64,000 bases of DNA from Bacilli bacterium. GTDB taxonomy: Bacteria; Bacillota_I; Bacilli_A; ML615J-28; CAG-313. Under the pieces are notes generated by a model. The model did not search any database. It was given only the letters and a program-made list of their open reading frames with translations, and was not told the origin of the DNA. Positions 8,387-36,003 of this stretch are shown here, piece by piece. The position numbers and the translations under genes were made by a program. Within the stretch, counting starts at the first letter, position 1. Each line of letters begins with the position of its first letter. The DNA is taken from assembly GCA_017937305.1 (NCBI GenBank), contig JAGBDV010000002.1:68405-132404 (forward strand), in the 5' to 3' direction.

Positions 8387-11300
8387 ATGAAAAAACTTTC
8401 TAAATTTTTATTTGTCTTTCTTCTTGGTGCATTATGTTTAATTGCATCATGTAAGAAAGAAATTCAAGAAGTAACTTTTACAAATATTCCAGAATCAATG
8501 TATGTAAATGATTCATTCACAGTGGAATACTCAAAACAAGAGGATGTAACAGCTACATTTGTTAGTAGCAATATTAATGTTGCAACTGTTGAAGGAGAAA
8601 AAGTTACTGCTGTTGCTGCAGGTGAATTTACATTAACTGCAACATTTACTTTAGGAAAAAAGACAAAAGAATATAAACACACAATTACTGTTCTTAATGC
8701 AGAATTTAATATTAATTATAATTTAAATGAAGGTGTGCTACCTGGTGATGCTCCTAGTAAATATAATGTAAAGAATCTACCTCTTACACTAGTTAATCCA
8801 ACTCGTGAAGGATATATCTTTAGTGGTTGGTATTTAAGTGAAGATTTTAGTGGCAATCAAGTTACTGAAATTGTAAAAGGTTCAATTGGAGAAGTTAACC
8901 TTTATGCAAAATGGGTTGAGGCTCCAGTTTATCTTACTATTACTTATAGTTTAAATAGTGGTAAACTTCCTGATGGTGCTCCTACAGAGTTCGTTAAAGG
9001 TATTGGTGTTAAACTTCCTGTTCCTACACGCGAAGGTTATAACTTCTTAGGTTGGACAAAGACAAAAACTGGACAAACTTATATTTCAGAAATTAGTGAA
9101 ACAGAAACTACTAATGTAACAGTTTATGCTCAATGGGAAAAAATTATCTACTATGGTAATATCACATATGAATTAAATGGTGGTACATTACCTGAAGGTG
9201 CTGCTTCTAAATATGAAGAAGGAAAAGCATTTACTCTTCCTATTCCTACACAAGAAGGTTATAAATTCTTAGGATGGTCTAAAGAAGCTGGTTCTACTTC
9301 TTATATTGAAAAGATTCCTGCAACTCAAAAAGGTGATGTAACTGTTTATGCAAACTGGGAAGAAATTAAAGAACCTAGTGTTGGGGATCCATTCACAGTT
9401 GAATTTGAACTAAATGGTGGTGCTTGGAGCTGGACAACTGGTACAGTTGTTGATGCTTCTAAAGGAATTGATTCTGTATCTAATTTACCAGAAATCTTCA
9501 TGGCTGATTTCTACACTTATTTAGTTGAAAATAATTTACTAAACTCAAGTAAAGTTTCTACAAAGATTCAAGTAAATAACTGGGCTGCATTTAGTGCAAA
9601 CAATGGTGACCCTGTTGCATTATACAATACTACTTCAACTGTTAAAACTGGTGCTGCTGATGGTTATAGTGAATTATTCTTTGATAGTATTAATGGTTAT
9701 GTTGCTGTTGGTGGATTCTTAGGTACAAGTCCTTATAAAGAAAAATATGCTAATGTTACAAAACACATGATTCAAATGACACTTTATAGATATAGTACTG
9801 TTCCAGTAACTGATAAAACATTCAAAGCTGGTGCTGGATTTGTTCTTGATGGATATTTCTATGGTACTCAAGGATTACTTGCAAGTTCTAAAGCAAATTA
9901 TCAAGAATTTAATGCTTTACGTGCTTTAATTCCAACTCCAACTGTTGGTTATGATAATAGTACTGCAACTCAAAATACTTATTTAGTATCTGAAGGTGTT
10001 ATTGGCACTGAATTAAAACTTGTTGCTCCAGTTAAAGAAGGACATATGTTCTTAGGCTGGTATGATAATGCAGAATTTGCTGGTGAAAAAATTGAAAGCG
10101 TTAAGGCTGGTTGCAAATTATATGCTTGTTGGTTTGATTTAAATGCACCTGCTCCAACATTTAAGATTGAATATGAATTAAATGGTGGAACAAATGATGC
10201 TGATGCACCTACAAGTTATACTCAAGGTGATGCAGTTGAATTACTTAAACCAACTAGAAGTGGTTATACTTTCCTTGGTTGGTCAACTGATGCTGAAGGT
10301 AATAATATTGTTACAGAAATTGCTGCTACTTCAAAAGGTGATGTAAAATTATATGCTAACTGGGCAGAAGGTGAAGAAGAAATTTACACAATTGAATATA
10401 AATATTCAGAAGGTAAACTACCTACTTATACTGTTGATTCACTAGAAGCATTTACTGCTTACTTCTTTGAAAAATTCCACGCATGGAGTGGATCTTCAGC
10501 CTCTGTTGAAGACTTTAAGAATGCTGCACTAGGTGCTTGGTCAAGTGGTTCTGATGGTGGTTATAAATTATATCTTCAAAATGCACGTGGACAAGTTAAT
10601 GAAAGTTACTTTGTTCATGCAGCTGAAAATATCGAACTATGGACTCCTTGGATGGATGTAATGGATGCTAAAGTTACAGAAATTAATGGTTCACAAAATG
10701 CTTGGGGTTCTAACTATGTAGGTTACTTAAGAATTGCTGCATTCTTCAAACAATCTGCATCATACTGGACAGCAGCTCGTACTGAAGACGTTTATAAAGG
10801 TTTAGCAATTCCTAAAGAATTAGTTAATGAATATAGACCTGGTGATAGTTTTGAATTACTAGAATTAAGTGTTAATGATGGAAGAACATTCCTTGGTTGG
10901 TATGATCAAAATGGAAATAAAGTTGAAAGAATTACTGCAACTTCAAAAGAAGATTTAGTATTAACTGCTAAATGGAGTGAAGCAATTCCTGTTGAAACAT
11001 TTGAAATTACAAATGAAATTACTAAATTATTAAAACTTGGTACTCATCAATTAACTTGGACTATTGGTCCAGATAATGCAACATTCAAGAAACTTACATT
11101 TGCATCAAGTGATGAAAGTGTATTAACAGTTTCAGAAAATGGTTTAATTGAAGCAATTAATATTGGTACTGCAAAAGTATTAATTACAGTTTACGGTAAT
11201 ACTTCACTTAACACTGAAATTGAAATTGAAGTTTATGTTGATCCTTATATTGATGGTGAATTCGTTGATGAAACATATGTTGTCGCTGAACAATCAATTC

Positions 11301-12571
11301 AACTTGCTGCTAAATATGTTGGCAAGAACACAACAAACTTAGTATGGGCTTCTAAAACTCCAGATATTGCATCAGTTGATGAAACAGGTGCTGTTACAGG
11401 TCATAAAGAAGGTCTTGCAGAAATCGTAGTTTCTGATGCAAATAATGACAAAGTATCATTTACATTCTACGTTACTGTTCTTAAAGAAGCTCCTACAGGA
11501 ATGTTAAAATTATTACTTGATAGTAATAATAAAGAAGTATATACAAAAGATCATTTACTAATCGGTATTAAGATTGGTAGTGATGGTGCTTATTACTCTG
11601 ATATTGTAGGTAGCGTATCTAAATTATTCTTTGAAGATTATGAAGTTCATACAGACTATTATCTTGAAAATCCAAATAATAAATCTAATTATAGTTCAGG
11701 TGGTGTTCAATTTATTACTGTTCACTATGCTGCTGATATGCCATATTCATCTTCTGCAATGTTTAATGGTGGTAAAAACCTTGCTTCTTACAATAAATCA
11801 TGTAACACAAACGGAACTCAAGCTTCATGGCATTATAGTGTTGGTAACGATGGTATTTGGGCTTCTCAAAATGAAGCTTATGCTGCATGGCATGCTGGTT
11901 CAAGTAAAACTATGACATGGACCAACAGTGGTGTTACAACTAGTCAAGTTGGTACAGATGTTTTACCTACAGATGTTAAATTAGGTAGTGATGGATACTT
12001 CTATATTAAAGGTGTTAAGACAACTGTTAAGAATACTACTTCAAGTACTAAACTTAATGGTATGGGATTAGCTGTTAAATTAGAAGGTACTACATGGCAA
12101 TTAGGTGGCCATTACTATAACTCAACTTATCAATACATTTCTTCTACTGGTGGTAATAATAACTCAATCGGTATGGAAACATCAGTTAGAGAAGGTTCTG
12201 ACCTATGGTTAACATGGCAATACACTGCTCAACTTTGTGCTAAACTTCTATTAAAATATAAATTACCTATTCAAAGACTAGTAGGTCACCACTTCTTCAG
12301 TGGTAAATGGTGTCCTCAACCAATGCTAGAAAATGATCTAGAAATTTGGCATGAATTTGTAGAACTTACAAGACAACAAATGGATTTATATGAAAACTAT
12401 GCTGATTATAAATTATCATTTGCAAGTGAAAGTTCTTACTTAAAAGATAATGGTAGAGTAAAAGAATTACCTAATTATCCTGAATGTGTAACTTATACTG
12501 TAACTTATACAACAGGATCAACAACTAAGACAATTACATTATCTTCAGTTCTTCCAGGTAACTTAGAATAA
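8387..12571 (+). CDS. Surface lipoprotein: Ig-like and InlB-B (Flg_new) repeats with a C-terminal Amidase_2 (paralog 1)
   Basis: Lipobox LIASC; repeats Y.LNGG...P.REGY.F.GW...LYA.W; amidase motifs ITVH, WHAG, SIGME, GHH, KWCP. Confidence 0.88.
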   Translation: MKKLSKFLFVFLLGALCLIASCKKEIQEVTFTNIPESMYVNDSFTVEYSKQEDVTATFVSSNINVATVEGEKVTAVAAGEFTLTATFTLGKKTKEYKHTITVLNAEFNINYNLNEGVLPGDAPSKYNVKNLPLTLVNPTREGYIFSGWYLSEDFSGNQVTEIVKGSIGEVNLYAKWVEAPVYLTITYSLNSGKLPDGAPTEFVKGIGVKLPVPTREGYNFLGWTKTKTGQTYISEISETETTNVTVYAQWEKIIYYGNITYELNGGTLPEGAASKYEEGKAFTLPIPTQEGYKFLGWSKEAGSTSYIEKIPATQKGDVTVYANWEEIKEPSVGDPFTVEFELNGGAWSWTTGTVVDASKGIDSVSNLPEIFMADFYTYLVENNLLNSSKVSTKIQVNNWAAFSANNGDPVALYNTTSTVKTGAADGYSELFFDSINGYVAVGGFLGTSPYKEKYANVTKHMIQMTLYRYSTVPVTDKTFKAGAGFVLDGYFYGTQGLLASSKANYQEFNALRALIPTPTVGYDNSTATQNTYLVSEGVIGTELKLVAPVKEGHMFLGWYDNAEFAGEKIESVKAGCKLYACWFDLNAPAPTFKIEYELNGGTNDADAPTSYTQGDAVELLKPTRSGYTFLGWSTDAEGNNIVTEIAATSKGDVKLYANWAEGEEEIYTIEYKYSEGKLPTYTVDSLEAFTAYFFEKFHAWSGSSASVEDFKNAALGAWSSGSDGGYKLYLQNARGQVNESYFVHAAENIELWTPWMDVMDAKVTEINGSQNAWGSNYVGYLRIAAFFKQSASYWTAARTEDVYKGLAIPKELVNEYRPGDSFELLELSVNDGRTFLGWYDQNGNKVERITATSKEDLVLTAKWSEAIPVETFEITNEITKLLKLGTHQLTWTIGPDNATFKKLTFASSDESVLTVSENGLIEAINIGTAKVLITVYGNTSLNTEIEIEVYVDPYIDGEFVDETYVVAEQSIQLAAKYVGKNTTNLVWASKTPDIASVDETGAVTGHKEGLAEIVVSDANNDKVSFTFYVTVLKEAPTGMLKLLLDSNNKEVYTKDHLLIGIKIGSDGAYYSDIVGSVSKLFFEDYEVHTDYYLENPNNKSNYSSGGVQFITVHYAADMPYSSSAMFNGGKNLASYNKSCNTNGTQASWHYSVGNDGIWASQNEAYAAWHAGSSKTMTWTNSGVTTSQVGTDVLPTDVKLGSDGYFYIKGVKTTVKNTTSSTKLNGMGLAVKLEGTTWQLGGHYYNSTYQYISSTGGNNNSIGMETSVREGSDLWLTWQYTAQLCAKLLLKYKLPIQRLVGHHFFSGKWCPQPMLENDLEIWHEFVELTRQQMDLYENYADYKLSFASESSYLKDNGRVKELPNYPECVTYTVTYTTGSTTKTITLSSVLPGNLE

Positions 12572-12577
12572 AAAAAT

Positions 12578-15025: not shown

Positions 15026-15028
15026 TTT

Positions 15029-17102: not shown

Positions 17103-17245
17103 GAATTTTATAAAGTAAATACAAATCCTTTTGTCAATCATATATATTGATTAAACAAGAGGATTTTTTGTTTTTATCATTATTACTTATCAAATTAAAA
17201 TTTTATGTTATACTAATAATAGAATTTAAATAGGAGGTGTTATAT

Positions 17246-18613
17246 ATGTACGCAAAATGTGCATGGAAAAAATATTCTTCTTCTGATTTAGAACAAGTAT
17301 TTAAATTTAATGAAGAATATAAAGATTATATTACAAAAGGAAAAACTGAACGTCTATGTGTTGATGAAGCAGTTAAAATTTCAGAAGAACATGGTTTTAA
17401 ACCATTATCTAGTTATGATAAATTAAATCCTGGTGATAAAGTATATGTTACTAATAAAGGTAAAAACATTGCATGCTTTGTAATTGGAGATAAACCAGTT
17501 GAAGAAGGTCTAAGAGTTCTTGGAGCTCATATTGATTCACCTAGAATTGATATTAAACAAAATCCATTATATGAAAAAAATGGTTTTGCACTACTTGATG
17601 CTCACTATTATGGTGGAATTAAAAAATATCAATGGGTAACTATTCCTCTTGCATTACACGGTGTTGTTTGTAAAAAAGATGGAAGTACCATCAATGTATG
17701 TATTGGTGAAGACGAAAAAGATCCAGTACTTGGTATTAGTGATTTATTAATTCACCTATCTGCAGATCAAATGCAAAAGCCAGGTGCAAAAGTTATTGAA
17801 GGTGAAGACCTTGATTTAACACTAGGTAATATGCCTTTAGAAGGTGAAGAAAAAGATGCTGTTAAAGCTAATGTTTTAAAACTATTAAAAGAAAAATATG
17901 ATTTTGAAGAAGAAGACTTTATCAGTGCTGAACTTGAAATTGTACCTGCTGGTCCTGCAAGAGATTATGGATTAGACAGAAGCATGGTTGCAGGATATGG
18001 ACATGATGATAGAGTTTGTGCTTATACTTCTTTAAGAGCTGTTCTTGATGCAGGAAAATGTGAATATACAACTTGTGCTATTTTAGTAGATAAAGAGGAA
18101 GTTGGTTCAATAGGTGCAACAGGTGCTCATTCAAAATTCTTTGAAAATACAGTTGCAGAACTAATTAATCTTTCAACTACATATTCAGAACTTAAAGTTC
18201 GTCACGCAATGGAAAACACTAAAATGTTATCAAGTGATGTTTCTGCAGGATTTGATCCACTATATGCTGGTGTAAATGATCCTAAAAATGCTGCATATTT
18301 AGGTAATGGTATTTGTTTCAATAAATATACAGGTTCTCGTGGTAAGAGTGGTTGTAATGATGCAATGCCAGAATATATGGCAGAAATTAGAAGAACAATG
18401 GATGATAATAACATTAATTATCAAACAGCTGAACTTGGACGTGTTGACCAAGGTGGTGGTGGAACAATTGCATACATTCTTGGTAATTATAATATGAATG
18501 TTATTGATGCAGGTATCGCAGTACTTAATATGCATGCTCCAATGGAAATTGTTTCTAAAGCCGATGTATATGAAGCATACTGCGCATATAAAGCATTTAT
18601 TTCTAAATTATAA
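17246..18613 (+). CDS. M18 family aminopeptidase
   Basis: AHIDSPR, YYGGIKKYQW, DKEEVGS, GGGGTIA, MHAP. Start set at the ATG after GGAGG. Confidence 0.93.
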   Translation: MYAKCAWKKYSSSDLEQVFKFNEEYKDYITKGKTERLCVDEAVKISEEHGFKPLSSYDKLNPGDKVYVTNKGKNIACFVIGDKPVEEGLRVLGAHIDSPRIDIKQNPLYEKNGFALLDAHYYGGIKKYQWVTIPLALHGVVCKKDGSTINVCIGEDEKDPVLGISDLLIHLSADQMQKPGAKVIEGEDLDLTLGNMPLEGEEKDAVKANVLKLLKEKYDFEEEDFISAELEIVPAGPARDYGLDRSMVAGYGHDDRVCAYTSLRAVLDAGKCEYTTCAILVDKEEVGSIGATGAHSKFFENTVAELINLSTTYSELKVRHAMENTKMLSSDVSAGFDPLYAGVNDPKNAAYLGNGICFNKYTGSRGKSGCNDAMPEYMAEIRRTMDDNNINYQTAELGRVDQGGGGTIAYILGNYNMNVIDAGIAVLNMHAPMEIVSKADVYEAYCAYKAFISKL

Positions 18614-18663: not shown

Positions 18664-21600
18664 TTAGTAAATTTTACCAAAGTTACCTTCATTCCAAATT
18701 AATTTTGCAGAATAAGAACCATCCCATTGAGTCCATGATGTTGTACCAGGAATTACACTGTAAAGAGTAATTGTTTTAGATACGCCACCAATAGTAACTG
18801 TAACATCATAAGAAACAGTTGTAGTAGTCTTAGGAGGATTATAAACACGACCTGTATTATCAACGATATCAGGGTTATTTGATTTCATTGTAATTTCAGC
18901 ATCAGCATAATCTTTCATGATAATATAGTTAACTTCAACCATCTTCATAAATTCATCCCAATATTGACCAGCTCTAATTGATTGAGGACAGTTTTTACCA
19001 CTCCATGTATTATGTTCTTTAACTCTATCTAGACCTAAACCATTTCTAATACAAATATCAGCAACTAATTGACCTGTTCTTTGCCATGTGTCATAAATAT
19101 CACCAGATACATTTACACACATTTCAATACCTACTGAGTTATTATTACCACCATAGTTACCGATGGAACCAGCTGCAACTTGAGAGAAATCTACTCTTAA
19201 TGGAGCAACATAGTAATAGCCATCAACAATCTTGTAACTAGGACCTAAAGTTGTGAAATGAGCTTTAGAAGGATTTGCAATAGTCTTAGTACCATTAGAA
19301 ATTGGAACTGAAATATTTGTTCTTTGACCATCAATTGTTAAGTACCAATTTGAACCATCTTGAACCATATCAAATTCTGGATCCTTTTCACCAGCTTTAA
19401 CACCTGTTGTTAACCAAGAGAATGAGTAACCTGTACCATCACCTGCATGGTATGCACGATATTTTTCACGAACTACACCTAAAATTTCATAGTTACCTGT
19501 TGTATAATGAATTGATGTACCACCAGTTGACATTGATGAGCCAATTGAATGAACTGTACCAGTAAGAGTCGCAGTATCATGAACTGTAACAAATTCAATT
19601 GTATCTTCAGCACGACGTTCTTTATGGTTAGAAGTATCTGTAATAGCATCTGAATTTGCATAATATTGTTCATTTACAACATAAGGAGTAAATAAGAAGT
19701 AGTTAACGCTACCATACATAGAATCATAGTATCTTTGCGTACCATCATTATATAAGCAAACATTACCAGCATCAACTAATGCAAAGTTATATTCAGAAAT
19801 TAATTTAACAACTTCATCAACTTTTGTTTCTTCAGCAAGATCAGCAACGATTAATTGGATCTTAACTTTGAAATTAGAACCACTATTATCACTAACTGTA
19901 ATAGTTACTGTACCTTCTTTTAATGCTTTAACATAACCATCTGCATCTACAGTTGCGATTGAAGAATCACTTGAATCAAAAGACATTACAACATTTTCAG
20001 TATTTTTACCTAATGCATGTGCATGAATTTGAACTTCTTCTCCAACACTTAATACACCATCAAATTCATCTTCGAAATCGACTTCAATTGATGGAATTGA
20101 ATAAACTGTAATTGTATAAGTCTTAATAGCGTAACCTACATAATCTCTAATTGTAATTGTACAAGTACCAGCATTATTAGCAGTCATTAAACCACCTTTT
20201 GTTACACTTATAATATCTGGGTCACTAGTTTCAAATAAAACATCTTGGAAGTATGCATCAGTTGGAAGAACTTTTGCAACAATTTGGAATGTATCACCTG
20301 TTATCATTTCTTCTATAATAGCATCTACTTGCATATCAGTTACTGGAGTTAATTCATTCCATTTAGCTTTTAGTGCCACATCTGCTTTTAAATCAAATAC
20401 TGTTTCGTATTTATTACCTAAAGCATCGTACCAACCATCAAATTCATAACCAAGTTTAAATGGTGTAATTAATTTATCATTTGTAGTTACATCAATAGTA
20501 ATTTTGCTTTCAGTAGGAGCAACATCATAGAATTTTACTTCACCAGGAGTTGTATTATCCATATCAATTGGATTACGGCTAAATGCAACAACTTGACCTA
20601 CTTTAATAGATGTAGTTACGATTGGGTGTAATTGCCCTTTATTGTTGTGTGAGTTAGAAATAGTTAATACATATTCAGCACCAGCAGCCCATGAAGATGG
20701 ACCTGATTGAATAATGTTTTTAACAACATATAAACCACTTACTTCATCTTTACCAATATAAATTCTATCAGAGAATGTAGCACCAGGGTCACATGAAGTT
20801 GTACCTAAGAATACATATTGTGCATAGTTAGTACCAGTCCAGAAAGCACCTTCATTGTAGTTGTAGTTATTAACCGTTAATGTTGCAGCAGGAGTACCTA
20901 ATTTTAAGTAAGACTCACCTGATACACCACCATCTAAATCATATTCAACTACAAATGCACTAATTCGTTGCCAATTTGCATATAGAGTTATATCTTCTAT
21001 ATTGTCTTTACCAATCGAATCAATATAATCAGTTGAATTAGGTTTAATACTCCAACCAAGGAATGTCCAACCATCACGAACTGGAGTACCTAGTACTAAT
21101 TCAGAACCAGCCATTACTAAATTATCTGCGTTATAAACACCACCATCTAATTCATAAGTAACTTTATAGAATTTAACAGCATCAGCAACATTAATTGTTG
21201 GTTTAGTAGTAAGTGTAGTACCGTAAGATTTGCAATGTTTAAATAAAGATGCATGCTTAGATAAATCTGTAATTACTTGACCATTATTATCTTCATAGTA
21301 GTTTTCAGCAAATACTGCTAAATGCGGGTTAGTACTTTCTGAATCACCTGTACCATTATATGATTGATAATAGAATTCAGTTGGTAAACCTAAGAAAATA
21401 TTGTTTTTAATATCACAAGACCAAGGACCATCTGAGTTGCCTTGACCATTGTTTCTAAAGTAAATACCATTGTAACAATGATCAAAAATGTTTTCTTCGA
21501 TTGTAATTACACCACCGTGTTCTTGATAACTCCATGCACCAATCGTACCACTGTTAGCAGTATTAGTCATCAAACCACCACACTTGATGAATTCATTACC

Positions 21601-24600: not shown

Positions 24601-24861
24601 TGCTGTTATGCTATCATTTTCTACTTTAACAATATTTGCGTCACTTGATACGATATCAAGATTTGCTAGAATATCTTCTTCTGTGTACTTTTTAACTTCT
24701 GTAGCAGATAGTTTTAATTCCACAGCTTCGCCGATTATTACACTAATTTCAGATTTTTCAGCAGAAAGTGTAACTTTCTTCTTACCTGAACATGAAGCAA
24801 GTGTAACTAATACAGCAATGAAGATTAAGCTTAATAAAAATGCTTTCTTAAAAAACTTCAT
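18664..24861 (-). CDS. Giant surface lipoprotein: Ig-like and InlB-B repeats, two parallel beta-helix domains, C-terminal Amidase_2 (paralog 2)
   Basis: Lipobox TLASC; InlB-B repeats; YATL..A...A..G..I.L.AG.Y beta-helix caps twice; VTVHDT, YHAGD, SVGIE, KEH, KNCP. Confidence 0.88.
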   Translation of the reverse strand: MKFFKKAFLLSLIFIAVLVTLASCSGKKKVTLSAEKSEISVIIGEAVELKLSATEVKKYTEEDILANLDIVSSDANIVKVENDSITAVGIGTANVTATWKEYEGATVTVKVNVLAPEVGSVTYSALPENVYVGDKFSITHEAGSDVTVSYEVSNAEILSVDGNNFEAKAAGSAKITATATNGYKEVKQEWNIEVQQGEYTITYELNGGKNASSNPAKYDVRNLPLAIAAATKANKQFLGWSLVEGSTEYVTEIAAGQTGDITLYANFADIKHAITYELDGGTLGANSPVEYVQGEETQLVNPTKEGYTFLGWSTVEGSTTYITKIASSLKADVKLYANWEKIPVFSNIVYELNGGTNPDNAEDQYEEGTCYTLPTPTKDGYKFLGWTKEETGTAYITEIAATETGDVKVYAQWELIIIKYEISYELNGGVQGENAPVEFEEGVAVTLPIPTKEGFKFLGWTKEIESTDYITTVGATEKEDIKVYAQWQEVIEGAVYVGAGLDYATLDEAIAGAADGSKIILAAGEYTLGVVINKSFEIVGPNADLPVSEFGADEALINVAKDISGNIAAKKVVFNGVHLKGIGGGSSTAGVYFQDGGSVEELTFASCTVSDMNTFVKFVGGSSSAILTIENSHIYSIGQFALWTTTGIKKTILLSNKVEGLGSGVVANSAAALFRVRGGSLEAYNNYFVGTTANQPGYFESIAETSYIKYNTFDNVTKFAHPTAANKLVFDENLYLDVDGKAFNIAPSELSAISTVTADVTVAKSEADRASRYMLILAEKYPDQYFKVTFDAAEGEIISTYPFAYDKDLGIESLPIVEKEGYLFSGWFLNGVKVESIPAGTTGELTLVAKWREPFLIVDGTTEEGHYATLSAALAAAQNGDIIKLVAGDYNEAVTIKTPNLTIQGPNAGVAGHATNRAAEAVIKSVITVNAAAKNLVIDGLKFTGAAQVTGKSGDYSGFIFQNNLVVDSTLVAAEYKPTTNYVDSGFIQFAYSAVNSATNFAFNNNKFENVAAENIHVGRNYNLTVDNNEFYNYTRDCIRIDGGYVYGVLSFTNNKFENPTVGKGQNAVYFKSYSGKASTSTVIIFKGNEFIKCGGLMTNTANSGTIGAWSYQEHGGVITIEENIFDHCYNGIYFRNNGQGNSDGPWSCDIKNNIFLGLPTEFYYQSYNGTGDSESTNPHLAVFAENYYEDNNGQVITDLSKHASLFKHCKSYGTTLTTKPTINVADAVKFYKVTYELDGGVYNADNLVMAGSELVLGTPVRDGWTFLGWSIKPNSTDYIDSIGKDNIEDITLYANWQRISAFVVEYDLDGGVSGESYLKLGTPAATLTVNNYNYNEGAFWTGTNYAQYVFLGTTSCDPGATFSDRIYIGKDEVSGLYVVKNIIQSGPSSWAAGAEYVLTISNSHNNKGQLHPIVTTSIKVGQVVAFSRNPIDMDNTTPGEVKFYDVAPTESKITIDVTTNDKLITPFKLGYEFDGWYDALGNKYETVFDLKADVALKAKWNELTPVTDMQVDAIIEEMITGDTFQIVAKVLPTDAYFQDVLFETSDPDIISVTKGGLMTANNAGTCTITIRDYVGYAIKTYTITVYSIPSIEVDFEDEFDGVLSVGEEVQIHAHALGKNTENVVMSFDSSDSSIATVDADGYVKALKEGTVTITVSDNSGSNFKVKIQLIVADLAEETKVDEVVKLISEYNFALVDAGNVCLYNDGTQRYYDSMYGSVNYFLFTPYVVNEQYYANSDAITDTSNHKERRAEDTIEFVTVHDTATLTGTVHSIGSSMSTGGTSIHYTTGNYEILGVVREKYRAYHAGDGTGYSFSWLTTGVKAGEKDPEFDMVQDGSNWYLTIDGQRTNISVPISNGTKTIANPSKAHFTTLGPSYKIVDGYYYVAPLRVDFSQVAAGSIGNYGGNNNSVGIEMCVNVSGDIYDTWQRTGQLVADICIRNGLGLDRVKEHNTWSGKNCPQSIRAGQYWDEFMKMVEVNYIIMKDYADAEITMKSNNPDIVDNTGRVYNPPKTTTTVSYDVTVTIGGVSKTITLYSVIPGTTSWTQWDGSYSAKLIWNEGNFGKIY
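23400..24270 (-). repeat. Four tandem InlB-B repeat units (~220 bp period) within paralog 2
   Basis: Near-identical DNA segments TTCTTTTGTCCAACCTAAGAATTTA recur at ~23473 and ~23695. Confidence 0.85.
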
Positions 24862-25025: not shown

Positions 25026-27938
25026 CTATCTATCTACATAAATACCTTGTACCATTGATGCAAGAGTAATCGATTTACTTTCACCATCTTTTGTAAATGT
25101 AATTGTATAAGTAACACATGTAGATTGTTCTGGTTGATTTACAACTCTACCATTTTTATTAACGATATCTGGATTATTAGAAGTAATTGATACTTCATAA
25201 CCAGCATACTTAGTTAATAGTTCATATTCTGCTTCAACAAGTTCTAAGAATTCCCACCAAATTTCTAAATCGTTTTCAAGCATTGGTTGAGGACAATCTT
25301 TTGCAGTATAGAAGTGGTGACCTCTAACTCTTGTAATATCAAGATTTTGTCTTACCATAATATCAGCAACTAGTTGTGCAGTTTTTTGCCATGTCCACCA
25401 AAGGTCAGAACCTTCATTTACACATGATTCAATACCGATAGAATTTCTATTACCACCTGTTGAACAAATACGTCCTTCATAAACTTGAGTATATGCCCAC
25501 CAAGTTGTACCCATGTAATATTCATCACCAACAATCTTGAATGGTAAACTTTGATCATTAATAAATGATTCAGCTTCTCTATTGTAGAAGGCATTACCAC
25601 TATAAGAAGAATTAGATGAGATAGTACCATCAGCATTTAATTTATGATCAGTACCTCTTGAGCTATAATTCCAAGGTTTAGGCATAGGAATTGTAGTTTT
25701 CTTTCCATTAATTTCATAATAGAAGTCATCTGAAATTGTAAAGTTAGGATACATTGGATCAGCAGCGGCTACTTTAACACCAGATGGAATCCATTTAAAT
25801 TCACCAACTTGAGCAAGTGCACCAGAATCCCCTGCATGCCATGCACCTTTTGATTCATCCATACAGTAGAATACACCATCATTACCAGTTGTATAGTGAA
25901 TTGATGTAGAACCATTTGTTGCGAAGTAACTTGCGTTTGCTGCAGCATTAGCTCCTTTTGCCATATTACCTGTATAGTGAACTGTAATGAATTCAATTGA
26001 ACTCATTGTGCCATATGTAGCTTGAGATTGATTTGATTTATCATAATAAGTTGTATCTTTTTTCAAATTACTATTACCAAATAATTTAGATACACTTCCT
26101 AAAATATCCTTACGATAAGTGTTACCAATATTTAGGTCGTATCTTGTAAATACATTACTTTCATTTGATCTAAGTGCTAAATCTAAAATTCCCTCAGGTA
26201 ATGCTTCTAAAACCATTACAACAAATTCAAGTTTTAATTCAGCATTCTTTGGATCTTTTGCAACAATCTTAGCTTCACCAGCATTAATACCAGTTACATT
26301 ACCACTTTCATCTACAGTAGCAATTTCTGGAGTTAATGATTCCCATACAACTTCACTCGTAGATTCATCACGGTAATTTACTATACCATTTAGTTTAATA
26401 TTTTCATCGATTAAAACATAAGAATTAGTTTCATATGAACCATCAATATAATCACCAGTATATACTTCTAATTCAAACTTAACATCTAAATCACGATTTC
26501 CATTTACTTGAACAGTAATAAATGTAATACCATTACTTAAAGCTTTAATAACACCTCTTGCGTTTACTGTTGCAACACTTTCATCACTTGAATAGAATTT
26601 AACAGTATTATCAGTTACATTTTTAGGACCAATAGTCCATACTAATTGATGAGATGTAAATAATAATAATTCAGAAATTTGATTAATTTCAAATGTTTCT
26701 GCAAATACTTCTTCTTCCCATTTTGCATAGAATACTTTGTTTCCAGTATCAGATGCACCAAGTTTAGTAATAGGGTTACCACTAAATTCTGGATTATCAT
26801 ACCAACCTAAAAATTTTAAGCCACTTTCTAATGATAATACAGGAAGAGTTAATTCTTGTCCTGCTTTATATTTAGATGGTACTTCTTCTTTAATTGGAGT
26901 AACATCACACATTTTTTGAATATAATTTGAGAAATACTTTTCGCCTGATGAATTCCATGAAATGAATTGATGCATTCTTACCATTGCGGCATACGTATCT
27001 GTATAGAAGTTTTGATCTTTACTTACTACTAACATTGCAGTGTTAAATTGTAAGAAGAATTTACTCCATTTTTGATAATATTTAGGAGTATTTAAGAAAT
27101 AGTTAGTTTGACCAGTTGTTGAAGGATTATTTTTTAAAGAAGGGTTACGTAATTTAATATCTTCATATGCTTCTAGTTGTTGTTTAATTTTGCTAACATA
27201 ATCATCAAAGCTAGAAGTTTCTCCATTACCTTGTGCCCATTCATATAAATCTTTAAATAATTCATCAACTATTTCTTCACGATTTTTAGCAGCTCTTGTA
27301 GGCCAAATTGCATCTTCTTTATTCGCTTCAAATTTAACTTTATAAACGCCTACTGGAGTTACTTCTACTAGCCATTCTTGAATATCTTCTTCATATCCAT
27401 TACTTGCAGTTGCAGTAATGATTACATCACCTTCATCATTAGCTGTAAATTTATTGTCTTTTACTGATAAAATATTTTCATCAGATGTTTCATATTTTAC
27501 TGTTACTTCTTTTTCTGATTGATGTTCAATTGTGAATGTATCACCTATAAAAATGTTTTCTGGTAGTTCTGAATATGTAATAACACCTAATTTAGGAGCA
27601 ACTACATTTACTTTTACTGTAGCTGTTGCACCATCATATTCTTTCCATGTTGCAGTGACTTCTGCAGTACCAACTTCTACTGCAACAGCTTTATCATCTT
27701 TAATTTTAATTACTTTATCATCACTTGATGATAATTTTAAATTTGATAATATATCTTCTTCAGAGTATTTTTTTGCTCCTGTTGCAGATAATTTCAAATC
27801 AACTACATCACCTACTGAAACAGTAATTTCTTCAGTTGTTGCAGAAAGCGAAACTTTCTTTTTAGCACCACAAGAAACTAATGTTACAAATAAGGTAATT
27901 AATACAAAACTTAATAATGCTTTCTTAAAAAACTTCAT
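25026..27938 (-). CDS. Surface lipoprotein: Ig-like domains, a split InlB-B repeat and a C-terminal Amidase_2 (paralog 3)
   Basis: Lipobox TLVSC; N-terminus similar to paralog 2; ITVHYT, WHAGD, SIGIE, GHH, KDCP. Confidence 0.88.
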   Translation of the reverse strand: MKFFKKALLSFVLITLFVTLVSCGAKKKVSLSATTEEITVSVGDVVDLKLSATGAKKYSEEDILSNLKLSSSDDKVIKIKDDKAVAVEVGTAEVTATWKEYDGATATVKVNVVAPKLGVITYSELPENIFIGDTFTIEHQSEKEVTVKYETSDENILSVKDNKFTANDEGDVIITATASNGYEEDIQEWLVEVTPVGVYKVKFEANKEDAIWPTRAAKNREEIVDELFKDLYEWAQGNGETSSFDDYVSKIKQQLEAYEDIKLRNPSLKNNPSTTGQTNYFLNTPKYYQKWSKFFLQFNTAMLVVSKDQNFYTDTYAAMVRMHQFISWNSSGEKYFSNYIQKMCDVTPIKEEVPSKYKAGQELTLPVLSLESGLKFLGWYDNPEFSGNPITKLGASDTGNKVFYAKWEEEVFAETFEINQISELLLFTSHQLVWTIGPKNVTDNTVKFYSSDESVATVNARGVIKALSNGITFITVQVNGNRDLDVKFELEVYTGDYIDGSYETNSYVLIDENIKLNGIVNYRDESTSEVVWESLTPEIATVDESGNVTGINAGEAKIVAKDPKNAELKLEFVVMVLEALPEGILDLALRSNESNVFTRYDLNIGNTYRKDILGSVSKLFGNSNLKKDTTYYDKSNQSQATYGTMSSIEFITVHYTGNMAKGANAAANASYFATNGSTSIHYTTGNDGVFYCMDESKGAWHAGDSGALAQVGEFKWIPSGVKVAAADPMYPNFTISDDFYYEINGKKTTIPMPKPWNYSSRGTDHKLNADGTISSNSSYSGNAFYNREAESFINDQSLPFKIVGDEYYMGTTWWAYTQVYEGRICSTGGNRNSIGIESCVNEGSDLWWTWQKTAQLVADIMVRQNLDITRVRGHHFYTAKDCPQPMLENDLEIWWEFLELVEAEYELLTKYAGYEVSITSNNPDIVNKNGRVVNQPEQSTCVTYTITFTKDGESKSITLASMVQGIYVDR

Positions 27939-28110: not shown

Positions 28111-29880
28111 TTATTTTTCAGGGAATCTTTCTCTTGAATGATAATGAGTATGTAATAACTCATGAGCTTTATGAGAATTAGGTTCACCTAAGAATTCTTT
28201 ATAAAGTGCTTGAATTTGTGTATTATTATGAGATTGACGAAGAGTTTGTCTTTCATCTTCAGAATAAAGAGCTTGAGCACGTTTTTGTTTAAATGTATCT
28301 AAAATATTAGTATCTTCATTAGGTAAGAACATTGGTTTAACATATGGTTGACCACCACCGTTAATACATCCACCAGGACAACCCATGATTTCAATGAATG
28401 TATATGGGCTCTTACCATCTCTGATTTGATCCATTAATACTTTAGCATTCTTCATACCAGATGCAATAGCGACTTTAATTACGTTTCCATTGATATTGAT
28501 TTCAGCTTCTTTTAAACCATCCATACCACGAACAGCTTCAAATTTAATAGCTTCGTGTTCTTTACCAGTTAATGCAAAGTAAGCAGTTCTAAGTGCAGCT
28601 TCCATAACACCACCAGTAGCACCGAAGATAACACCAGCACCAGTGTATTCACCCATGATGTCTTGGTCAAATTCTTCATCAGGAAGTTTATTAAAGTTAA
28701 TACCACTACGTTTGATTAATTTTGCAAGTTCTCTTGTAGTAAGTACTGCATCAACATCTCTTAATCCTTCACATTCCATTTCAGGACGTTCTTTTTCAAA
28801 TTTCTTAGCTGTACAAGGCATAATTGATACAACGAAAATATCTTTTGGATCAATATTGTTCTTTTCAGCATAGTAAGATTTGATAATAGCACCTTGCATT
28901 TGGTGTGGAGATTTACAGCTTGATAAATGATCTAATTGATCTCCGTAATAATATTCAGCATAGTTAACCCAACCTGGAGAACATGAAGTAATCATTGGAA
29001 GAACACCATCATTTTTAATTCTACCAAGAAGTTCATTTGCTTCTTCCATAATAGTTAAGTCAGCAGCAAAGTTTGTATCATAAACTTTAGCAAAGCCAAG
29101 TCTCTTAAGTGCAGCAACCATTTTACCAGTAACAGCAGTACCAATAGGTAAACCAAATTCTTCACCTAAAGCAGCTCTTACAGCAGGAGCAGTTTGAACA
29201 ACTACATGTTTGCCAGCAAGCATAGCAGCATCAACTTTTTCAATTTCACTCTTTTCAGAAAGTGCACCAGTAGGACATACGCTTACACATTGGCCACAAA
29301 GGATACAAGGAGTTTCAGAGAATGAACGTTCAGCAGCAGGAGCAACGATTGTACTAAAGCCACGTTTTTCAAATCCTAAGATACCAGTACCATGAGCATT
29401 TTGACAACGAGCAACACAACGACCGCAAAGGATACATTTAGAAGTGTCACGAACTAAAGATGGAGTTAAATCATCATAGCTAACTGGAGTCTTAGCACCT
29501 AAGAATTTACCTTCTCTAGCACCAGTGATTTGAGCTACATATAATAATTCACAATGTCCATTCTTTTCACATTGTTGACAGTTCATTGAGTGATTTGATA
29601 ATAATAATTCAACACTTAAACGACGAGCAGCAGCAGCTTTTGGAGAAGAAATTTTAATTTCCATACCTTCAGCAACTGGATATACACATGATGCAACTAA
29701 TCCTCTTGCACCTGTTGCTTCAACTAGACAAACACGACAAGAAGCTAAGCTACATTCACCATGATTAAAGCTACATAATGAAGGGATTTCATAACCACAT
29801 TCTCTTGCAGCTTCTAAAATTGTAAGGCCTTCTTCTACTTGATAAGCAACGCCTTCGATTTTAATATTAATTTTTGCCAT
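28111..29880 (-). CDS. hydA: [FeFe]-hydrogenase catalytic subunit (group A)
   Basis: H-cluster motifs TSCSPGW, MPCTAKKFE and EIMGCPGGCINGGGQP; N-terminal 2Fe-2S, His-ligated and 2x4Fe-4S domains. Confidence 0.96.
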   Translation of the reverse strand: MAKINIKIEGVAYQVEEGLTILEAARECGYEIPSLCSFNHGECSLASCRVCLVEATGARGLVASCVYPVAEGMEIKISSPKAAAARRLSVELLLSNHSMNCQQCEKNGHCELLYVAQITGAREGKFLGAKTPVSYDDLTPSLVRDTSKCILCGRCVARCQNAHGTGILGFEKRGFSTIVAPAAERSFSETPCILCGQCVSVCPTGALSEKSEIEKVDAAMLAGKHVVVQTAPAVRAALGEEFGLPIGTAVTGKMVAALKRLGFAKVYDTNFAADLTIMEEANELLGRIKNDGVLPMITSCSPGWVNYAEYYYGDQLDHLSSCKSPHQMQGAIIKSYYAEKNNIDPKDIFVVSIMPCTAKKFEKERPEMECEGLRDVDAVLTTRELAKLIKRSGINFNKLPDEEFDQDIMGEYTGAGVIFGATGGVMEAALRTAYFALTGKEHEAIKFEAVRGMDGLKEAEININGNVIKVAIASGMKNAKVLMDQIRDGKSPYTFIEIMGCPGGCINGGGQPYVKPMFLPNEDTNILDTFKQKRAQALYSEDERQTLRQSHNNTQIQALYKEFLGEPNSHKAHELLHTHYHSRERFPEK

Positions 29881-29895
29881 TAGAATATACCTCCA

Positions 29896-31758
29896 TTATT
29901 TCTTAATAATTGCGTGGAATGGACAAGAAGAAATACACATACCACACTTAATACATTTATCTTGATCAATAACAAATGGTTGTTTGATTACACCAGAGAT
30001 TGCACCAACTGGACAAACACGTGAGCACTTAGAGCAACCTTTACATTGTTCAGGAACAATATAGTATTGCATTAAATCTTTACAGATATGAGCAGGACAT
30101 TGTTTGTCAACTACGTGTGCAATGTATTCATCTTTGAATTGACGCATTGTTGAAAGTACTGGGTTAGCAGCAGTTTGACCTAAACCACATAGTGAGTTAG
30201 ATTTAACAGCTTCTGATAAATCTTCTAGATCAGCAAGATCTTGTAAAGTTCCTTGACCTTTAGTAATCTTTTCAAGAATTTCAAGAATACGTTTTGTACC
30301 AATACGACATGGAGAACATTTACCACATGATTCATCACAAATAAATTCCATATAGAATTTAGCAACGTCAACCATACAGTTATCTTCATCCATAACGATA
30401 GCACCACCAGAACCCATCATTGAGCCAAGTGCAACTAAGTTATCAAAGTCGATTGGAGTATCTAAATCTTTAGCAGTTAAACATCCACCTGATGGACCAC
30501 CAGTTTGGATAGCTTTGAACTCTTTACCATTAGGAATTCCACCACCAATTTCGTAAATTAAATCACGAACTGTAGTACCCATAGGAATTTCGACTAGACC
30601 AACGTTATTAACTTTACCACCAAGAGCGAATACTTTAGTACCTTTAGATCTTTCAGTACCCATAGATGCGAACTTTTCAGCACCTTCTCTTAAGATGTAT
30701 GGAACACATGCAAGTGTTTCTACGTTGTTAATAATAGATGGTTTTTGCCATAAACCTTTAACAGCTGGGAATGGAGGTCTTGGACGTGGCATACCACGTT
30801 TACCTTCAATTGAGTTAAGTAATGCAGTTTCTTCACCACATACGAATGCACCAGCACCTAAACGAATATGAACATCAAAACTGAAATCAGTTCCTAAAAT
30901 ATTTTCACCTAATAAACCAATTTTCTTAGCTTCTTCAATAGCTTTACGAAGTCTTGCAACAGCAGTTGGATATTCAGCACGAACATAGAAATAACCATTT
31001 TGAGCACCAATTGCATAACCAGCAATAGCCATACCTTCAATAACAGCTAGAGGGTTACCTTCTAAGATTGAACGGTCCATGAATGCACCTGGGTCACCTT
31101 CGTCACCATTACATACTACATATTTTTCAGCAGAGTTTTGATTTAAAGCAAATTGCCATTTTCTACCAGTAGGGAAACCACCGCCTCCACGACCACGTAG
31201 ACCAGCAGCTAATACTTCATCAATAACTTCTTGTTGAGTCATACTTAAAGCTCTTAATAAACCTTTATAAGCACCGTAACCTAAAGCTTCTTCAATGTTT
31301 TCAGGATTGATTACACCACAACCATGTAATGCAACACGTACTTGTTTTTTATAGAAAGTGATTTCATCTTGTTTTTGAATCTTTTCTTTTGTAACAGGGT
31401 CAACATAAAGAAGTCTTTCAACGATTTCACCGTTTAATAAATCTTTTTCAACGATTTCTTCAACGTCTGAAACTTGAACACCACGATATAGAGTGTCTTC
31501 AGGGAAAATCTTAACGAAAGGTCCTTGTGAACAGAAACCAAAACATCCTACTTGGTTAACTGATACTTTTGCGTCAATTCCTTTTGCAGGAATTAATTCT
31601 TGGAATTTTTCAAGGATAGCTTGTGCATCACTTGATAAACATCCTGTACCACCACAAATAACGATTGAACGTTTTCCACCTTTACCAGAGAATTTGTCAT
31701 TAATTTGTTCAGAACAAACTTCAATCTTTTGTAATAATTCTTGTTTAGTATTAATCAT
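29896..31758 (-). CDS. hydB: NuoF-like flavoprotein subunit of the hydrogenase
   Basis: GRGGGGFPTG, DEGDPGAFMDR, FVCGEETAL, ESCGKCSPCRIG; C-terminal 2x4Fe-4S. Confidence 0.95.
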   Translation of the reverse strand: MINTKQELLQKIEVCSEQINDKFSGKGGKRSIVICGGTGCLSSDAQAILEKFQELIPAKGIDAKVSVNQVGCFGFCSQGPFVKIFPEDTLYRGVQVSDVEEIVEKDLLNGEIVERLLYVDPVTKEKIQKQDEITFYKKQVRVALHGCGVINPENIEEALGYGAYKGLLRALSMTQQEVIDEVLAAGLRGRGGGGFPTGRKWQFALNQNSAEKYVVCNGDEGDPGAFMDRSILEGNPLAVIEGMAIAGYAIGAQNGYFYVRAEYPTAVARLRKAIEEAKKIGLLGENILGTDFSFDVHIRLGAGAFVCGEETALLNSIEGKRGMPRPRPPFPAVKGLWQKPSIINNVETLACVPYILREGAEKFASMGTERSKGTKVFALGGKVNNVGLVEIPMGTTVRDLIYEIGGGIPNGKEFKAIQTGGPSGGCLTAKDLDTPIDFDNLVALGSMMGSGGAIVMDEDNCMVDVAKFYMEFICDESCGKCSPCRIGTKRILEILEKITKGQGTLQDLADLEDLSEAVKSNSLCGLGQTAANPVLSTMRQFKDEYIAHVVDKQCPAHICKDLMQYYIVPEQCKGCSKCSRVCPVGAISGVIKQPFVIDQDKCIKCGMCISSCPFHAIIKK

Positions 31759-32246
31759 TAGTTTGCACCTCCCATTTTACGATATTCTTCAATGATTGCT
31801 GGAACTTGAGAAACTGCAACTTTTGGATAAACTTTACCATTAATTGATAAAGCAGGAGCAATACCACAAGCACCGATACAACGTAATGCTTCTAAAGTGA
31901 ATAAACCATCTTCAGTAGTTTCACCTGGTTTAATGTTTAAAATTTCTGAGAATTTGTCAATAACTTGTTGTGCGCCTTTAACGTAACAAGCAGTACCTAG
32001 ACATACACCAATAACATATTTCCCTTTTGGATTTAAAGAGAAGAATGAATAGAATGTAACTACACCATAAATTTCTGCAACAGGTACTCCAATTTGTTCA
32101 GACACTAATTCTTGTACTTCAAGAGGGATGTAACCAAATTCCTTTTGGATGTCACTTAAGATCATCATTAAAGGAGTTTTCTCATCTTTGTATCTTGAAA
32201 TAATTTCAATAATTTGCTTTTCAGCATGAGCTTGTAAATGAGCCAT
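31758..32246 (-). CDS. hydC: NuoE-like 2Fe-2S subunit of the hydrogenase
   Basis: VTFYSFF, CLGTAC and CIGAC motifs; translationally coupled to hydB. Confidence 0.95.
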   Translation of the reverse strand: MAHLQAHAEKQIIEIISRYKDEKTPLMMILSDIQKEFGYIPLEVQELVSEQIGVPVAEIYGVVTFYSFFSLNPKGKYVIGVCLGTACYVKGAQQVIDKFSEILNIKPGETTEDGLFTLEALRCIGACGIAPALSINGKVYPKVAVSQVPAIIEEYRKMGGAN

Positions 32247-33523: not shown

Positions 33524-33575
33524 TGTCCTTATTATATATAAAATTATAACTCATCAAAAGATGAGTTATAAAGTA

Positions 33576-34862: not shown

Positions 34863-34926
34863 ATTTATATCCTCTTCATATTATTTTCTTATATAGTTTA
34901 CCATAATTTAATGATTTATTCAATCA

Positions 34927-36003
34927 TTACACTAATTTAACATATTTATAACTTTCAACTACATCATCTTTAGTTGTTTCAATAGTATATTCTATACCTT
35001 TTACGCACTTAGGTAATTTAGTAAGTACACCATTAGGTTCTAAATATTCCGAATGAGGAATAAGTTTAATTTGATATCCTTCTTTAACAAATTCTAAAAT
35101 GTCTTTTTCTACTTCTACTAAGTGTAAGAAATATTCCCATAAGTTATTAACTCTTAAAGTTTGAGGACAGTTCTTTCCACTAAAGAAGTGATGTTGTTTA
35201 ATATCATAAATTTCTAAATCATTTTCATCAAGTAGTTTTGCAACTAATTTAGCACATCTCATAAAGGATAACCAAACATTAGTACCTTCATTAACACATG
35301 TTTCAATACCAATAGAGTTATTATTTCCTCCACGGTTTGCAATCTTTTCATATGTTTTATTAAAGTATGTTTCACCTAAATAGAAATATTCATCATCAAC
35401 AGCCATACAAATACCTTGGTCATTAATATCGTCAACAGTACATACTCTTTTAATTACTTTACCGTCTACTTCTTTTTCAAACATCGGTGCAGGAACAGTT
35501 GTTTTTTCACCGTTAATTGTATAAAAACTATCTTCACTAATGCCAAGTTCAAACTTATCCGATACTTTTACGCCAGTATTATATAAAGTGTAATCATATT
35601 GTGTTGTATCACCTGCGTGATATGCTACTTCATTATCAGGAATATTATGATATATCCCATCATTTCCAACTACATATTGAAAACTAGCTTTGTATGGTTC
35701 TTTTGTATCTACCCACATTTCTTTATAAACAGTATCACTCCAAAATTTTGCAGTGTGTTTTGCACCTGTATCGCCTGTATCATGAACTGTTATATATACT
35801 TTAGGTTTTATTCTTAAATCTCTATTTTCATTTTTTTCTTTTGCGATATGTTCTTTAATATCTAAAGATTCAAATAAATAAGGAGTTATTGAAGATATCA
35901 TTGTTTGTTTAAAGATTTTTTGCCAACCACAAACAACAATTTCTTTTTTAAATACTTCTTCAGTGTTATTTAATTTATTAAAATATTCTAAAACTTTATT
36001 CAT
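34927..36003 (-). CDS. Stand-alone Amidase_2 without a signal peptide (paralog 4)
   Basis: ITVHDT, YHAGD, SIGIE, QHH, KNCP; same insertion and flanking segments as the three lipoproteins. Confidence 0.88.
   Translation of the reverse strand: MNKVLEYFNKLNNTEEVFKKEIVVCGWQKIFKQTMISSITPYLFESLDIKEHIAKEKNENRDLRIKPKVYITVHDTGDTGAKHTAKFWSDTVYKEMWVDTKEPYKASFQYVVGNDGIYHNIPDNEVAYHAGDTTQYDYTLYNTGVKVSDKFELGISEDSFYTINGEKTTVPAPMFEKEVDGKVIKRVCTVDDINDQGICMAVDDEYFYLGETYFNKTYEKIANRGGNNNSIGIETCVNEGTNVWLSFMRCAKLVAKLLDENDLEIYDIKQHHFFSGKNCPQTLRVNNLWEYFLHLVEVEKDILEFVKEGYQIKLIPHSEYLEPNGVLTKLPKCVKGIEYTIETTKDDVVESYKYVKLV

Follow-up and report, generated by a model that had tools for sequence, protein, structure and literature searches.

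The amidases that form the subject of this analysis have their closest solved relatives among Bacillus endolysins, namely XlyA of the PBSX prophage of B. subtilis and PlyL and PlyG of Bacillus anthracis (prophage/phage), and they share the Amidase_2 family with AmpD, the cytoplasmic anhydro-MurNAc-L-Ala amidase of Gram-negative bacteria (MurNAc, N-acetylmuramic acid), which acts upstream of AnmK and MurQ. A functional parallel is found in the MurNAc catabolism of B. subtilis (murQ-murR-murP-amiE-nagZ-namZ), where Müller et al. (PMC8054146) found peptidoglycan to be digested only when NagZ, the amidase AmiE and NamZ act in concert, and MurQ to process the MurNAc that is released. A second parallel is Tannerella forsythia (NamZ1/NamZ2), described (10.1101/2021.12.02.470905) as a host-associated bacterium with NamZ-family enzymes that lives on the peptidoglycan fragments of its cohabitants. 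The locus compared with these systems lies in a stretch of 64,000 nucleotides from a Bacilli bacterium of the lineage ML615J-28; CAG-313 (contig JAGBDV010000002.1, positions 68,405 to 132,404; hereafter 'the window'), in which a preliminary description had recognized four paralogous peptidoglycan amidases, three of them on giant lipoprotein stalks, and had proposed a candidate contact-dependent bacteriolysis system, on the premise that the host might be wall-less. Judged by gene content, the occurrence of the amidase family within the order is clearly independent of whether the producer has a wall, and the enzymes probably harvest the walls of other bacteria, because relatives that lack wall synthesis keep them.

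All four open reading frames (ORFs; P0001 to P0004, Table 1) are present under translation table 11, and the view that they end in the same amidase module was borne out by a search with the hidden Markov model PF01510, in which P0001, P0002, P0003 and P0004 scored 55.4, 52.8, 68.9 and 50.2 bits, respectively, against a gathering cut-off of 26 bits (the Amidase_2 match of P0001 falls into two pieces). The translations of all four contain the motifs TVH(Y/D), SIG(M/I)E or SVGIE, and H..(F/W/Y)(S/T)(G/A)K.CPQ. The zinc ligands and the SIGxE/SVGxE glutamate had been described as intact, and indeed H74, H129, E234, H271, K277 and C279 (numbering of the 358-residue P0004) are invariant in all ten paralogs of the genome, aligned over about 360 residues, as well as in all 64 rows of an alignment that includes relatives. 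The zinc ligands H74, H271 and C279 and the glutamate E234 align with the motifs of XlyA; which residue binds zinc and which is catalytic we take to be the same as in PlyL and T7 lysozyme.

A profile search of the PDB with the ten modules retrieved XlyA as the best match (3hmb and 3rdr, E 1.6e-33), followed by PlyL and PlyG. The match is split between profile positions 52-133 and 221-291, around 85 residues being inserted exactly at the XlyA sequence HAGDGNGSGN. The AlphaFold2 model of P0004, for which the 64-row alignment served as input, had a predicted local distance difference test score (pLDDT) of 96.7 and a predicted template modelling score (pTM) of 0.94, and Foldseek superimposed it on XlyA (3rdr) with a target template modelling score (TM) of 0.94 and a root-mean-square deviation of 1.4 A, and on PlyL with a target TM of 0.87. 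For residues 1-65, the insertion (133-222) and the C-terminal domain (310-358) Foldseek found no counterpart in the PDB. Compared with XlyA, PlyL and PlyG, the proteins thus agree in fold, in the H/H/C zinc site, in the catalytic Glu and in the Lys that stands two residues ahead of the Cys, but they carry the extra insertion and two further parts, an element of around 65 residues at the N-terminus and a beta domain of around 50 residues at the C-terminus, and they are either lipid-anchored behind giant repeat stalks or signal-less single modules, without a phage context. On the basis of sequence and model the enzymes are predicted to be zinc N-acetylmuramoyl-L-alanine amidases of the XlyA/PlyL endolysin type, and the predicted structure describes a lineage-specific, rebuilt module in which the core, interrupted after HAGDG by a beta insertion of about 85 residues, is combined with the N-terminal element and the C-terminal beta domain. 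A protein-database search yielded 668 clusters at E <=1e-20, the sole source name shown being 'N-acetylmuramoyl-L-alanine amidase', and in a phage collection none of the six matched records covered at least 80% of the module, with only the core matching. In some copies of two relatives (G018 and G039; loci L123, L127, L132, L137 and L138) two to four repeats of the C-terminal beta domain, of around 55 residues, precede the amidase; the domain behaves like an independent repeat, possibly a binding one.

The three long proteins of the window are putative lipoproteins, as judged from lipoboxes that were called by eye from the translations, and their amidase module is located C-terminal to a stalk of Flg_new and Big_2 repeats, which agrees with the distal position of the enzyme in the preliminary description. 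Flg_new accounts for six stretches in P0001 (213.7 bits), seven in P0002 (228.4 bits) and one in P0003, and Big_2 for two stretches in each. No cell-wall-binding module (LysM, SH3b, CWB, SLH etc.) scored above its Pfam cut-off in P0001 to P0004; SH3_5 reached 19.3 bits (cut-off 22). In the center of P0002 (residues 480-1300, window positions 20962-23424) some 700 residues are without a Pfam family and only the two flanking Flg_new stretches match; the regular N- and G-rich turns give this region, by eye, the look of a beta-helix. When this center and the non-repeat spacers of P0001 and P0003 were searched as four pieces, Flg_new was the only family recovered in three of them and no significant family was recovered in the fourth.

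Table 1. Coordinates of the amidase genes in the window and of the parts of their products (lipoboxes read by eye; residue ranges refer to the predicted model of P0004)
Feature	Position	Strand	Length	Description
P0001	8387..12571	+	1394 aa	lipoprotein amidase (putative); Flg_new + Big_2 + Amidase_2 (Pfam)
P0001 signal peptide	8387-8452			signal peptide and lipobox IASC (Cys22)
P0001 stalk	8453-11503
P0001 catalytic module	11504-12568
P0002	18664..24861	-	2065 aa	giant lipoprotein amidase (putative); Flg_new + Big_2 + Amidase_2 (Pfam)
P0002 signal peptide	24790-24861			signal peptide and lipobox LASC (Cys24)
P0002 stalk	19765-24789
P0002 catalytic module	18667-19764
P0003	25026..27938	-	970 aa	lipoprotein amidase (putative); Flg_new + Big_2 + Amidase_2 (Pfam)
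P0003 signal peptide	27870-27938			signal peptide and lipobox LVSC (Cys23)
P0003 stalk	26142-27869
P0003 catalytic module	25029-26141
P0004	34927..36003	-	358 aa	short amidase, bare module without signal peptide; Amidase_2 (Pfam)
P0004 N-terminal element	residues 1-65			helix and beta hairpins
P0004 core part 1	residues 66-132			Zn ligand H74
P0004 insertion	residues 133-222			beta-rich
P0004 core part 2	residues 223-305			E234, H271, K277, C279
P0004 C-terminal domain	residues 310-358			beta domain

To specify the relation between the amidases and the wall of their producers, 41 genomes were searched: the genome itself and, as relatives, 10 from its genus, 14 from its family and 16 from its order. 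The markers of peptidoglycan synthesis were concordant: matches were obtained for MraY in 26 genomes, for FtsW/RodA in 27, for the transpeptidase of penicillin-binding proteins (PBPs) in 28 and for MurB in 27 (including six of the same genus), and MurA gave a strong hit (E 1.9e-86 or better) in 27. Thirteen genomes were without MraY, FtsW, PBP and MurB, and their MurA hits were no better than 1.7e-17; ten of these marker-negative genomes are at least 92% complete, among them one of the window's own genus (G001). Amidase_3 follows the wall markers strictly, being present in 28/28 marker-positive and 0/13 marker-negative genomes. The amidase module, in contrast, was found in 40 of the 41 genomes (1 to 16 matches each), including 12 of the 13 that are marker-negative, and the median number of matches was 7 in marker-negative and marker-positive genomes alike. 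The copies of five marker-negative genomes kept E234, H271, K277 and C279 in 29/29 rows aligned there (of 33 rows in all, four were not aligned at the catalytic columns under crude trimming), and at least seven of these ORFs, considering those with a start inside the fetched locus, have a lipobox. The marker-negative relatives thus lend support to the view that the enzymes are more than autolysins; turnover of the own wall is possible in the host of the window, which is walled (see below).

Within the genus the markers are split: G001 (95% complete), G002, G004 and G008 are without MraY, FtsW, PBP, MurB and Amidase_3, and G003, G005, G006, G007, G009 and G010 have four or five of these markers, with G005 and G009 lacking MraY only. 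This suggests that peptidoglycan loss within the window's genus is very recent or ongoing. Repeated loss of peptidoglycan in these orders is reported by Field et al. (PMC10868615), who also place the family CAG-698 in the order ML615J-28 and raise the possibility that gaps in precursor synthesis force the scavenging of muropeptides. A mraY hit of Coprobacillus sp. CAG:698 coincides in coordinates and score with one of G032, a relative from the window's order (family f2), which makes ML615J-28 the probable order of the window. Among the best 80 of 398 loci, the nearest named records were metagenome-assembled genomes (MAGs) labelled Erysipelotrichaceae (90% identity), Bacilli, Mollicutes, Acholeplasmatales and Anaeroplasma bactoclasticum, and further Coprobacillus sp. 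CAG:698 and Staphylococcus sp. CAG:324. The kinship with Acholeplasmatales and Anaeroplasma that had been guessed was close in so far as MAGs of relatives bear these labels, but others are labelled Bacilli, Mollicutes or Coprobacillus sp. CAG:698.

The retention of the amidases is paralleled by that of a MurNAc-catabolic route. Contig C18 of the genome carries an operon of six genes (locus L139, 10019-15719) that encodes a DUF624 membrane protein, NamZ (NamZ_N 268.4 and NamZ_C 156.7 bits), MupG, AnmK (437.9 bits, cut-off 387), MurQ (360.9 bits, cut-off 302) and an alpha/beta hydrolase; the NamZ lacks a signal peptide. The genomes with MurQ (above cut-off) and those with NamZ coincide exactly, 34 of the 41, ten of the 13 marker-negative ones included, and all 34 also possess the amidase module, with a median of 8 matches (range 2-16) as compared to a median of 2 (range 0-7) in the seven genomes without the cluster. 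The three marker-negative genomes that lack NamZ and MurQ are two incomplete ones (65% and 69%) and G026, which is also the one high-quality genome without an amidase module. GH3 was found in 40/41 genomes, and in the marker-negative G018, G038, G039, G031 and G027 a GH3 gene of around 880 codons lies between NamZ and MurQ. The only adjacency of an amidase and a glycosidase that was noticed is on contig C12 of G019 (38269-40931), where a short-form amidase of 354 residues is encoded around 640 bp downstream of GH3. In the C18 operon NamZ adjoins MupG; Müller et al. (PMC8054146) report NamZ to be missing wherever a MupG-like enzyme is present.

The assembly that contains the window (1.43 Mb in 25 contigs, 27.5% G+C, 71.8% complete) holds ten paralogs of the module, on contigs C3, C5, C10, C12 and C20, so that the four of the preliminary description are all real but understate the family. 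Eight of them are long (662 to 2651 residues), and in each the module forms the extreme C-terminus, behind a stalk of Flg_new/Ig-like repeats; seven of these have a signal peptide with a lipobox, and the N-terminus of the eighth is lost beyond a contig end. The remaining two, P0004 and a protein of 375 residues, are short and signal-less. The module of P0003 is 85% identical to that of a paralog of at least 1965 residues on C20. Contig C10 (54673-64864 and 71683-73293) carries paralogs of 704 and 2651 residues in tandem together with, around 7 kb downstream of them, a 600-codon SIS-domain gene that was taken for GlmS, an order that recurs on contig C200 of G005. A tree was made of 64 modules, ten from the genome itself and 54 from the best 80 of 398 confirmed loci (out of 593 pattern hits), the loci being ranked by likeness to the short P0004 and the sample thus biased toward short forms. 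In this tree the short forms fall into two clades conserved across many genomes, with an approximate likelihood ratio test (SH-aLRT) support of 99 each: the one with P0004 comprises 28 rows and the one with the 375-residue paralog nine, eight of which are short. P0001, P0002 and P0003 group with three more long forms of this genome in a clade that contains only its own copies (SH-aLRT 98), P0001 and P0002 being on long branches. We infer that the short forms carry out a conserved AmpD-like reaction in the cytoplasm and that the long forms are surface enzymes undergoing diversification.

The host itself is not wall-less, contrary to the premise of the preliminary description. Its gene content indicates that it makes peptidoglycan: MurA scored 396.1 bits against a cut-off of 297 (NF006873), and contig C15 carries a division and cell wall (dcw)-type cluster for RsmH, a SpoVD-like class B PBP, a leucine-rich-repeat protein, MurE, MraY and MurD, in which MurD, MurE and MraY are all above their cut-offs. 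A class A PBP, a weak MurF-like ligase, two further Mur-ligase paralogs and two Amidase_3 genes are encoded as well. With MurA, MurD, MurE, MraY and two PBPs the pathway, which the preliminary description had named as the finding that would speak against it, is essentially there; FtsW, MurG and MurB were not found in the 71.8%-complete assembly. Since these three genes adjoin in G006 (same genus, 97% complete; ftsW-murG-murB, C3:258848-261830), one unassembled stretch would explain the gap. The leucine-rich-repeat protein of the C15 cluster (585 residues; locus L022, 13309-15066), encoded between the class B PBP and MurE, has a weak match to the HupY/LrrG adhesins.

Considering the above, we propose, with a probability of around 0.55, that the amidases act at the cell surface on foreign peptidoglycan, from which they remove the peptides so that the material can be taken up and catabolized, and that they may also lyse neighboring cells. 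The lipid-anchored long forms would cut the stem peptides off non-self peptidoglycan, that is, the walls or wall debris of neighboring gut bacteria, and the products, free peptides together with peptide-free glycan or muropeptide sugars, would be imported. Breakdown in the cytoplasm could then proceed via NamZ, the GH3 enzyme or MupG, AnmK and MurQ, in this order, while P0004 and the 375-residue paralog would remove peptides from imported (anhydro)muropeptides intracellularly, like AmpD. In walled species the same enzymes may, as a side role, also process the wall that the cell itself has shed. The foreign nature of the substrate, the link to the catabolic route and the lysis of live cells are all deduced, the first from the following: to our knowledge MurNAc is confined to bacterial walls, and for that reason genomes that lack wall synthesis and retain the MurNAc route should use foreign wall material.

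The described systems resemble the present one in part. The set found in B. subtilis consists of a MurNAc-L-Ala amidase, an exo-glucosaminidase, the exo-muramidase NamZ and the etherase MurQ (PMC8054146), and NamZ, a GH3 enzyme and MurQ are likewise present here. The differences are that NamZ has no signal peptide, that MupG and AnmK are part of the operon, that the amidases are unlinked, ten in number and of the Amidase_2 type, and that the system persists in kin without synthesis genes, in which recycling is impossible. AmiE of B. subtilis presumably has a fold other than Amidase_2. The short signal-less forms, together with AnmK and MurQ, recall the Gram-negative pathway of AmpD, but AmpD is only a weak structural match of the P0004 model (Foldseek rank 10, target TM 0.53) and the short forms carry the insertion and the flanking domains. 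T. forsythia salvages MurNAc for its own wall, whereas the AnmK/MurQ route found here is catabolic. A MurNAc auxotrophy of the Tannerella type was considered and rejected: MurA is present here and MurB in the walled kin (27/41 relatives, including six of the same genus).

Several observations weigh against the proposal. The NamZ-MurQ operon on C18 has none of the ten amidase genes in it or next to it, and the link between amidases and catabolism is one of co-occurrence in related, non-independent genomes; in addition, the high-quality and marker-positive G012, G033 and G036 possess the module without NamZ or MurQ. The number of matches overcounts the genes wherever the profile splits, such that the 8, 16, 7, 10 and 10 matches in the five marker-negative genomes correspond to around 4, 13, 6, 7 and 6 genes (in G018, 8 become 4). 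The marker-negative calls rest on MAGs, and the MAG labelled Anaeroplasma bactoclasticum had to be rejected as a wall-less test case because it contains two PBPs and a truncated MraY frame. An endo-acting enzyme that cleaves the glycan was not found, in a search that did not extend to GH25 and lytic transglycosylases. Finally, the host encodes peptidoglycan synthesis and turnover of its own wall by the amidases is therefore possible.

The latter point leads to the alternative that survives best, in which the enzymes are ordinary autolysins that act on the cell's own peptidoglycan in growth, separation or recycling and are lipid-anchored only for want of sortases. Sortases are indeed lacking in RFN20 and ML615J-28 according to Field et al. 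(PMC10868615), and the MurQ/NamZ/NagZ/amidase set of B. subtilis is described in terms of turnover and recycling (PMC8054146). Moreover, NlpC/P60 is patchy (17/41, in marker-positive and marker-negative genomes) and the GH73 glucosaminidase (PF01832), which was considered as a glycan-cutting partner and rejected, is found in 0/41 genomes although 28 carry synthesis markers, so that some wall-cleaving role needs to be filled. Nevertheless, the module persists in 12 of the 13 marker-negative genomes at the same median match number, whereas Amidase_3, the likelier housekeeping amidase, is lost in all 13. The lack of a wall-binding domain above the Pfam cut-off does not fit an autolysin either, stalks of up to around 2300 residues would put the enzyme far from the membrane, and ten paralogs are many for a genome of around 2 Mb. 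We consider a role restricted to the own wall unlikely.

Somewhat more doubtful is a dedicated contact-dependent weapon, in which tethered lysins of graded reach kill neighbors in predation or competition, as the preliminary description had it. Endolysin-type amidases lyse Gram-positive cells from outside, and the core is of this type (XlyA, PlyL, PlyG). The distal enzyme on a long adhesin-like stalk, the range of the eight long forms from 662 to 2651 residues, the fast evolution of the long-form copies and the retention of the module in kin without peptidoglycan genes would all suit such a weapon, and Anaeroplasma bactoclasticum was reportedly described as bacteriolytic in 1973. Yet the MAG labelled with that name carries PBPs, the computed results fit feeding on debris as well as they fit killing, an amidase by itself cannot pass the Gram-negative outer membrane to reach the wall, and the producer is itself walled, with no protection mechanism identified. 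The tight co-occurrence with the catabolic cluster points to nutrition rather than to antagonism alone.

It is quite improbable that the proteins are mainly adhesins or host-interaction proteins, the tip of which binds peptidoglycan or detoxifies immunostimulatory muropeptides in the way of the scavenger peptidoglycan recognition proteins. The recognition proteins do share the Amidase_2 fold, repeats of the Flg_new and Big_2 kind are a typical feature of surface adhesins, and the organism occurs in animal gut metagenomes; but the strict conservation of the catalytic residues argues against a role in binding only, no evidence of host contact was found, and the connection with MurNAc catabolism would be left unexplained. 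Remnants of prophage endolysins, to which the closest solved structures belong, can be practically dismissed, given the absence of phage or holin genes among the 20 neighbors, the fact that the phage records match only the core (0/6 covering at least 80% of the module), the lipoprotein signals and giant stalks of the long forms and the conservation of the short forms as orthologs in many genomes.

The neighborhood was analyzed by comparing 20 ORFs, in the window up to around 40.3 kb, with Pfam. They encode housekeeping functions: ABC exporters, SerS, an M18 aminopeptidase, Fur, [FeFe] hydrogenase genes and others, with one of the 20 ORFs unmatched. As had been noted before, there is no phage, holin or cell-division gene among these 20 neighbors, and no candidate for an immunity gene was seen among them, small ORFs and secretion systems not being part of that search. 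The four amidase genes do not form one operon; only P0003 and P0002 are in tandem, with P0003 upstream and a gap of 164 nucleotides. Among the amidase genes, at 28111-32246, lies an operon of three genes for a [FeFe] hydrogenase of the HydABC type (Fe_hyd_lg_C, Nuo51-like and 2Fe-2S thioredoxin-like). The M18 aminopeptidase gene (17237-18613) is convergent with that of P0002 and ends 50 nucleotides from it; that this enzyme may have a role in the use of the released peptides is only a thought.

DNA near-identical to the window was encountered in animal gut metagenomes (pig, sheep and unspecified gut) of several studies. Contigs from four metatranscriptome runs, belonging to two animal-gut studies, cover parts of the P0001, P0002 and P0003 genes at 93-99% likeness, for instance a contig of 1340 nucleotides across the amidase module of P0001. 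This is a weak hint that the three giant genes are transcribed, weak because DNA can occur in metatranscriptome libraries; depth and coverage of such contigs are unusable as a measure of expression, and the parts not covered carry no meaning.

The catalytic domain is of a known kind. In the literature searched, which did not include supplementary gene tables, we met no description of the module with its insertion and flanking parts, of the architecture as giant lipoproteins, of the expansion throughout the order or of the retention together with MurNAc catabolism in the absence of wall synthesis, nor any paper connecting these amidases or MurQ with Mollicutes-like gut lineages: the main text of Field et al. 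(PMC10868615) contains no mention of amidase, autolysin, hydrolase or lytic, and Wang et al. (PMC7301438) none of amidase, autolysin, muramoyl, lysozyme or bacteriolytic.

The genomes that lack every synthesis marker tested and yet possess NamZ, GH3 and MurQ have 3 to 16 matches to the module, a combination suggesting that these organisms live off the walls of other bacteria. It is conceivable, although speculative and on balance unlikely, that the reduced-genome gut Bacilli (ML615J-28, Acholeplasmatales and Anaeroplasma) are specialized wall consumers, some of them true predators or epibionts, in which amidase-tipped lipoproteins breach the walls of the prey and constitute the lytic factor of Anaeroplasma. 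If true, the loss of the own wall would at the same time remove the need for self-protection, which would help to explain why peptidoglycan has been lost repeatedly in these lineages. The harvesting of foreign walls would, if correct, assign a function to the largest surface proteins of widespread uncultured bacteria of the animal gut, add a nutritional angle to the repeated wall loss described by Field et al., and provide candidate genes for the old and unexplained bacteriolysis by Anaeroplasma. The module itself, an endolysin core with a conserved inserted domain, represents a natural set of amidases, possibly with diverse target preferences.

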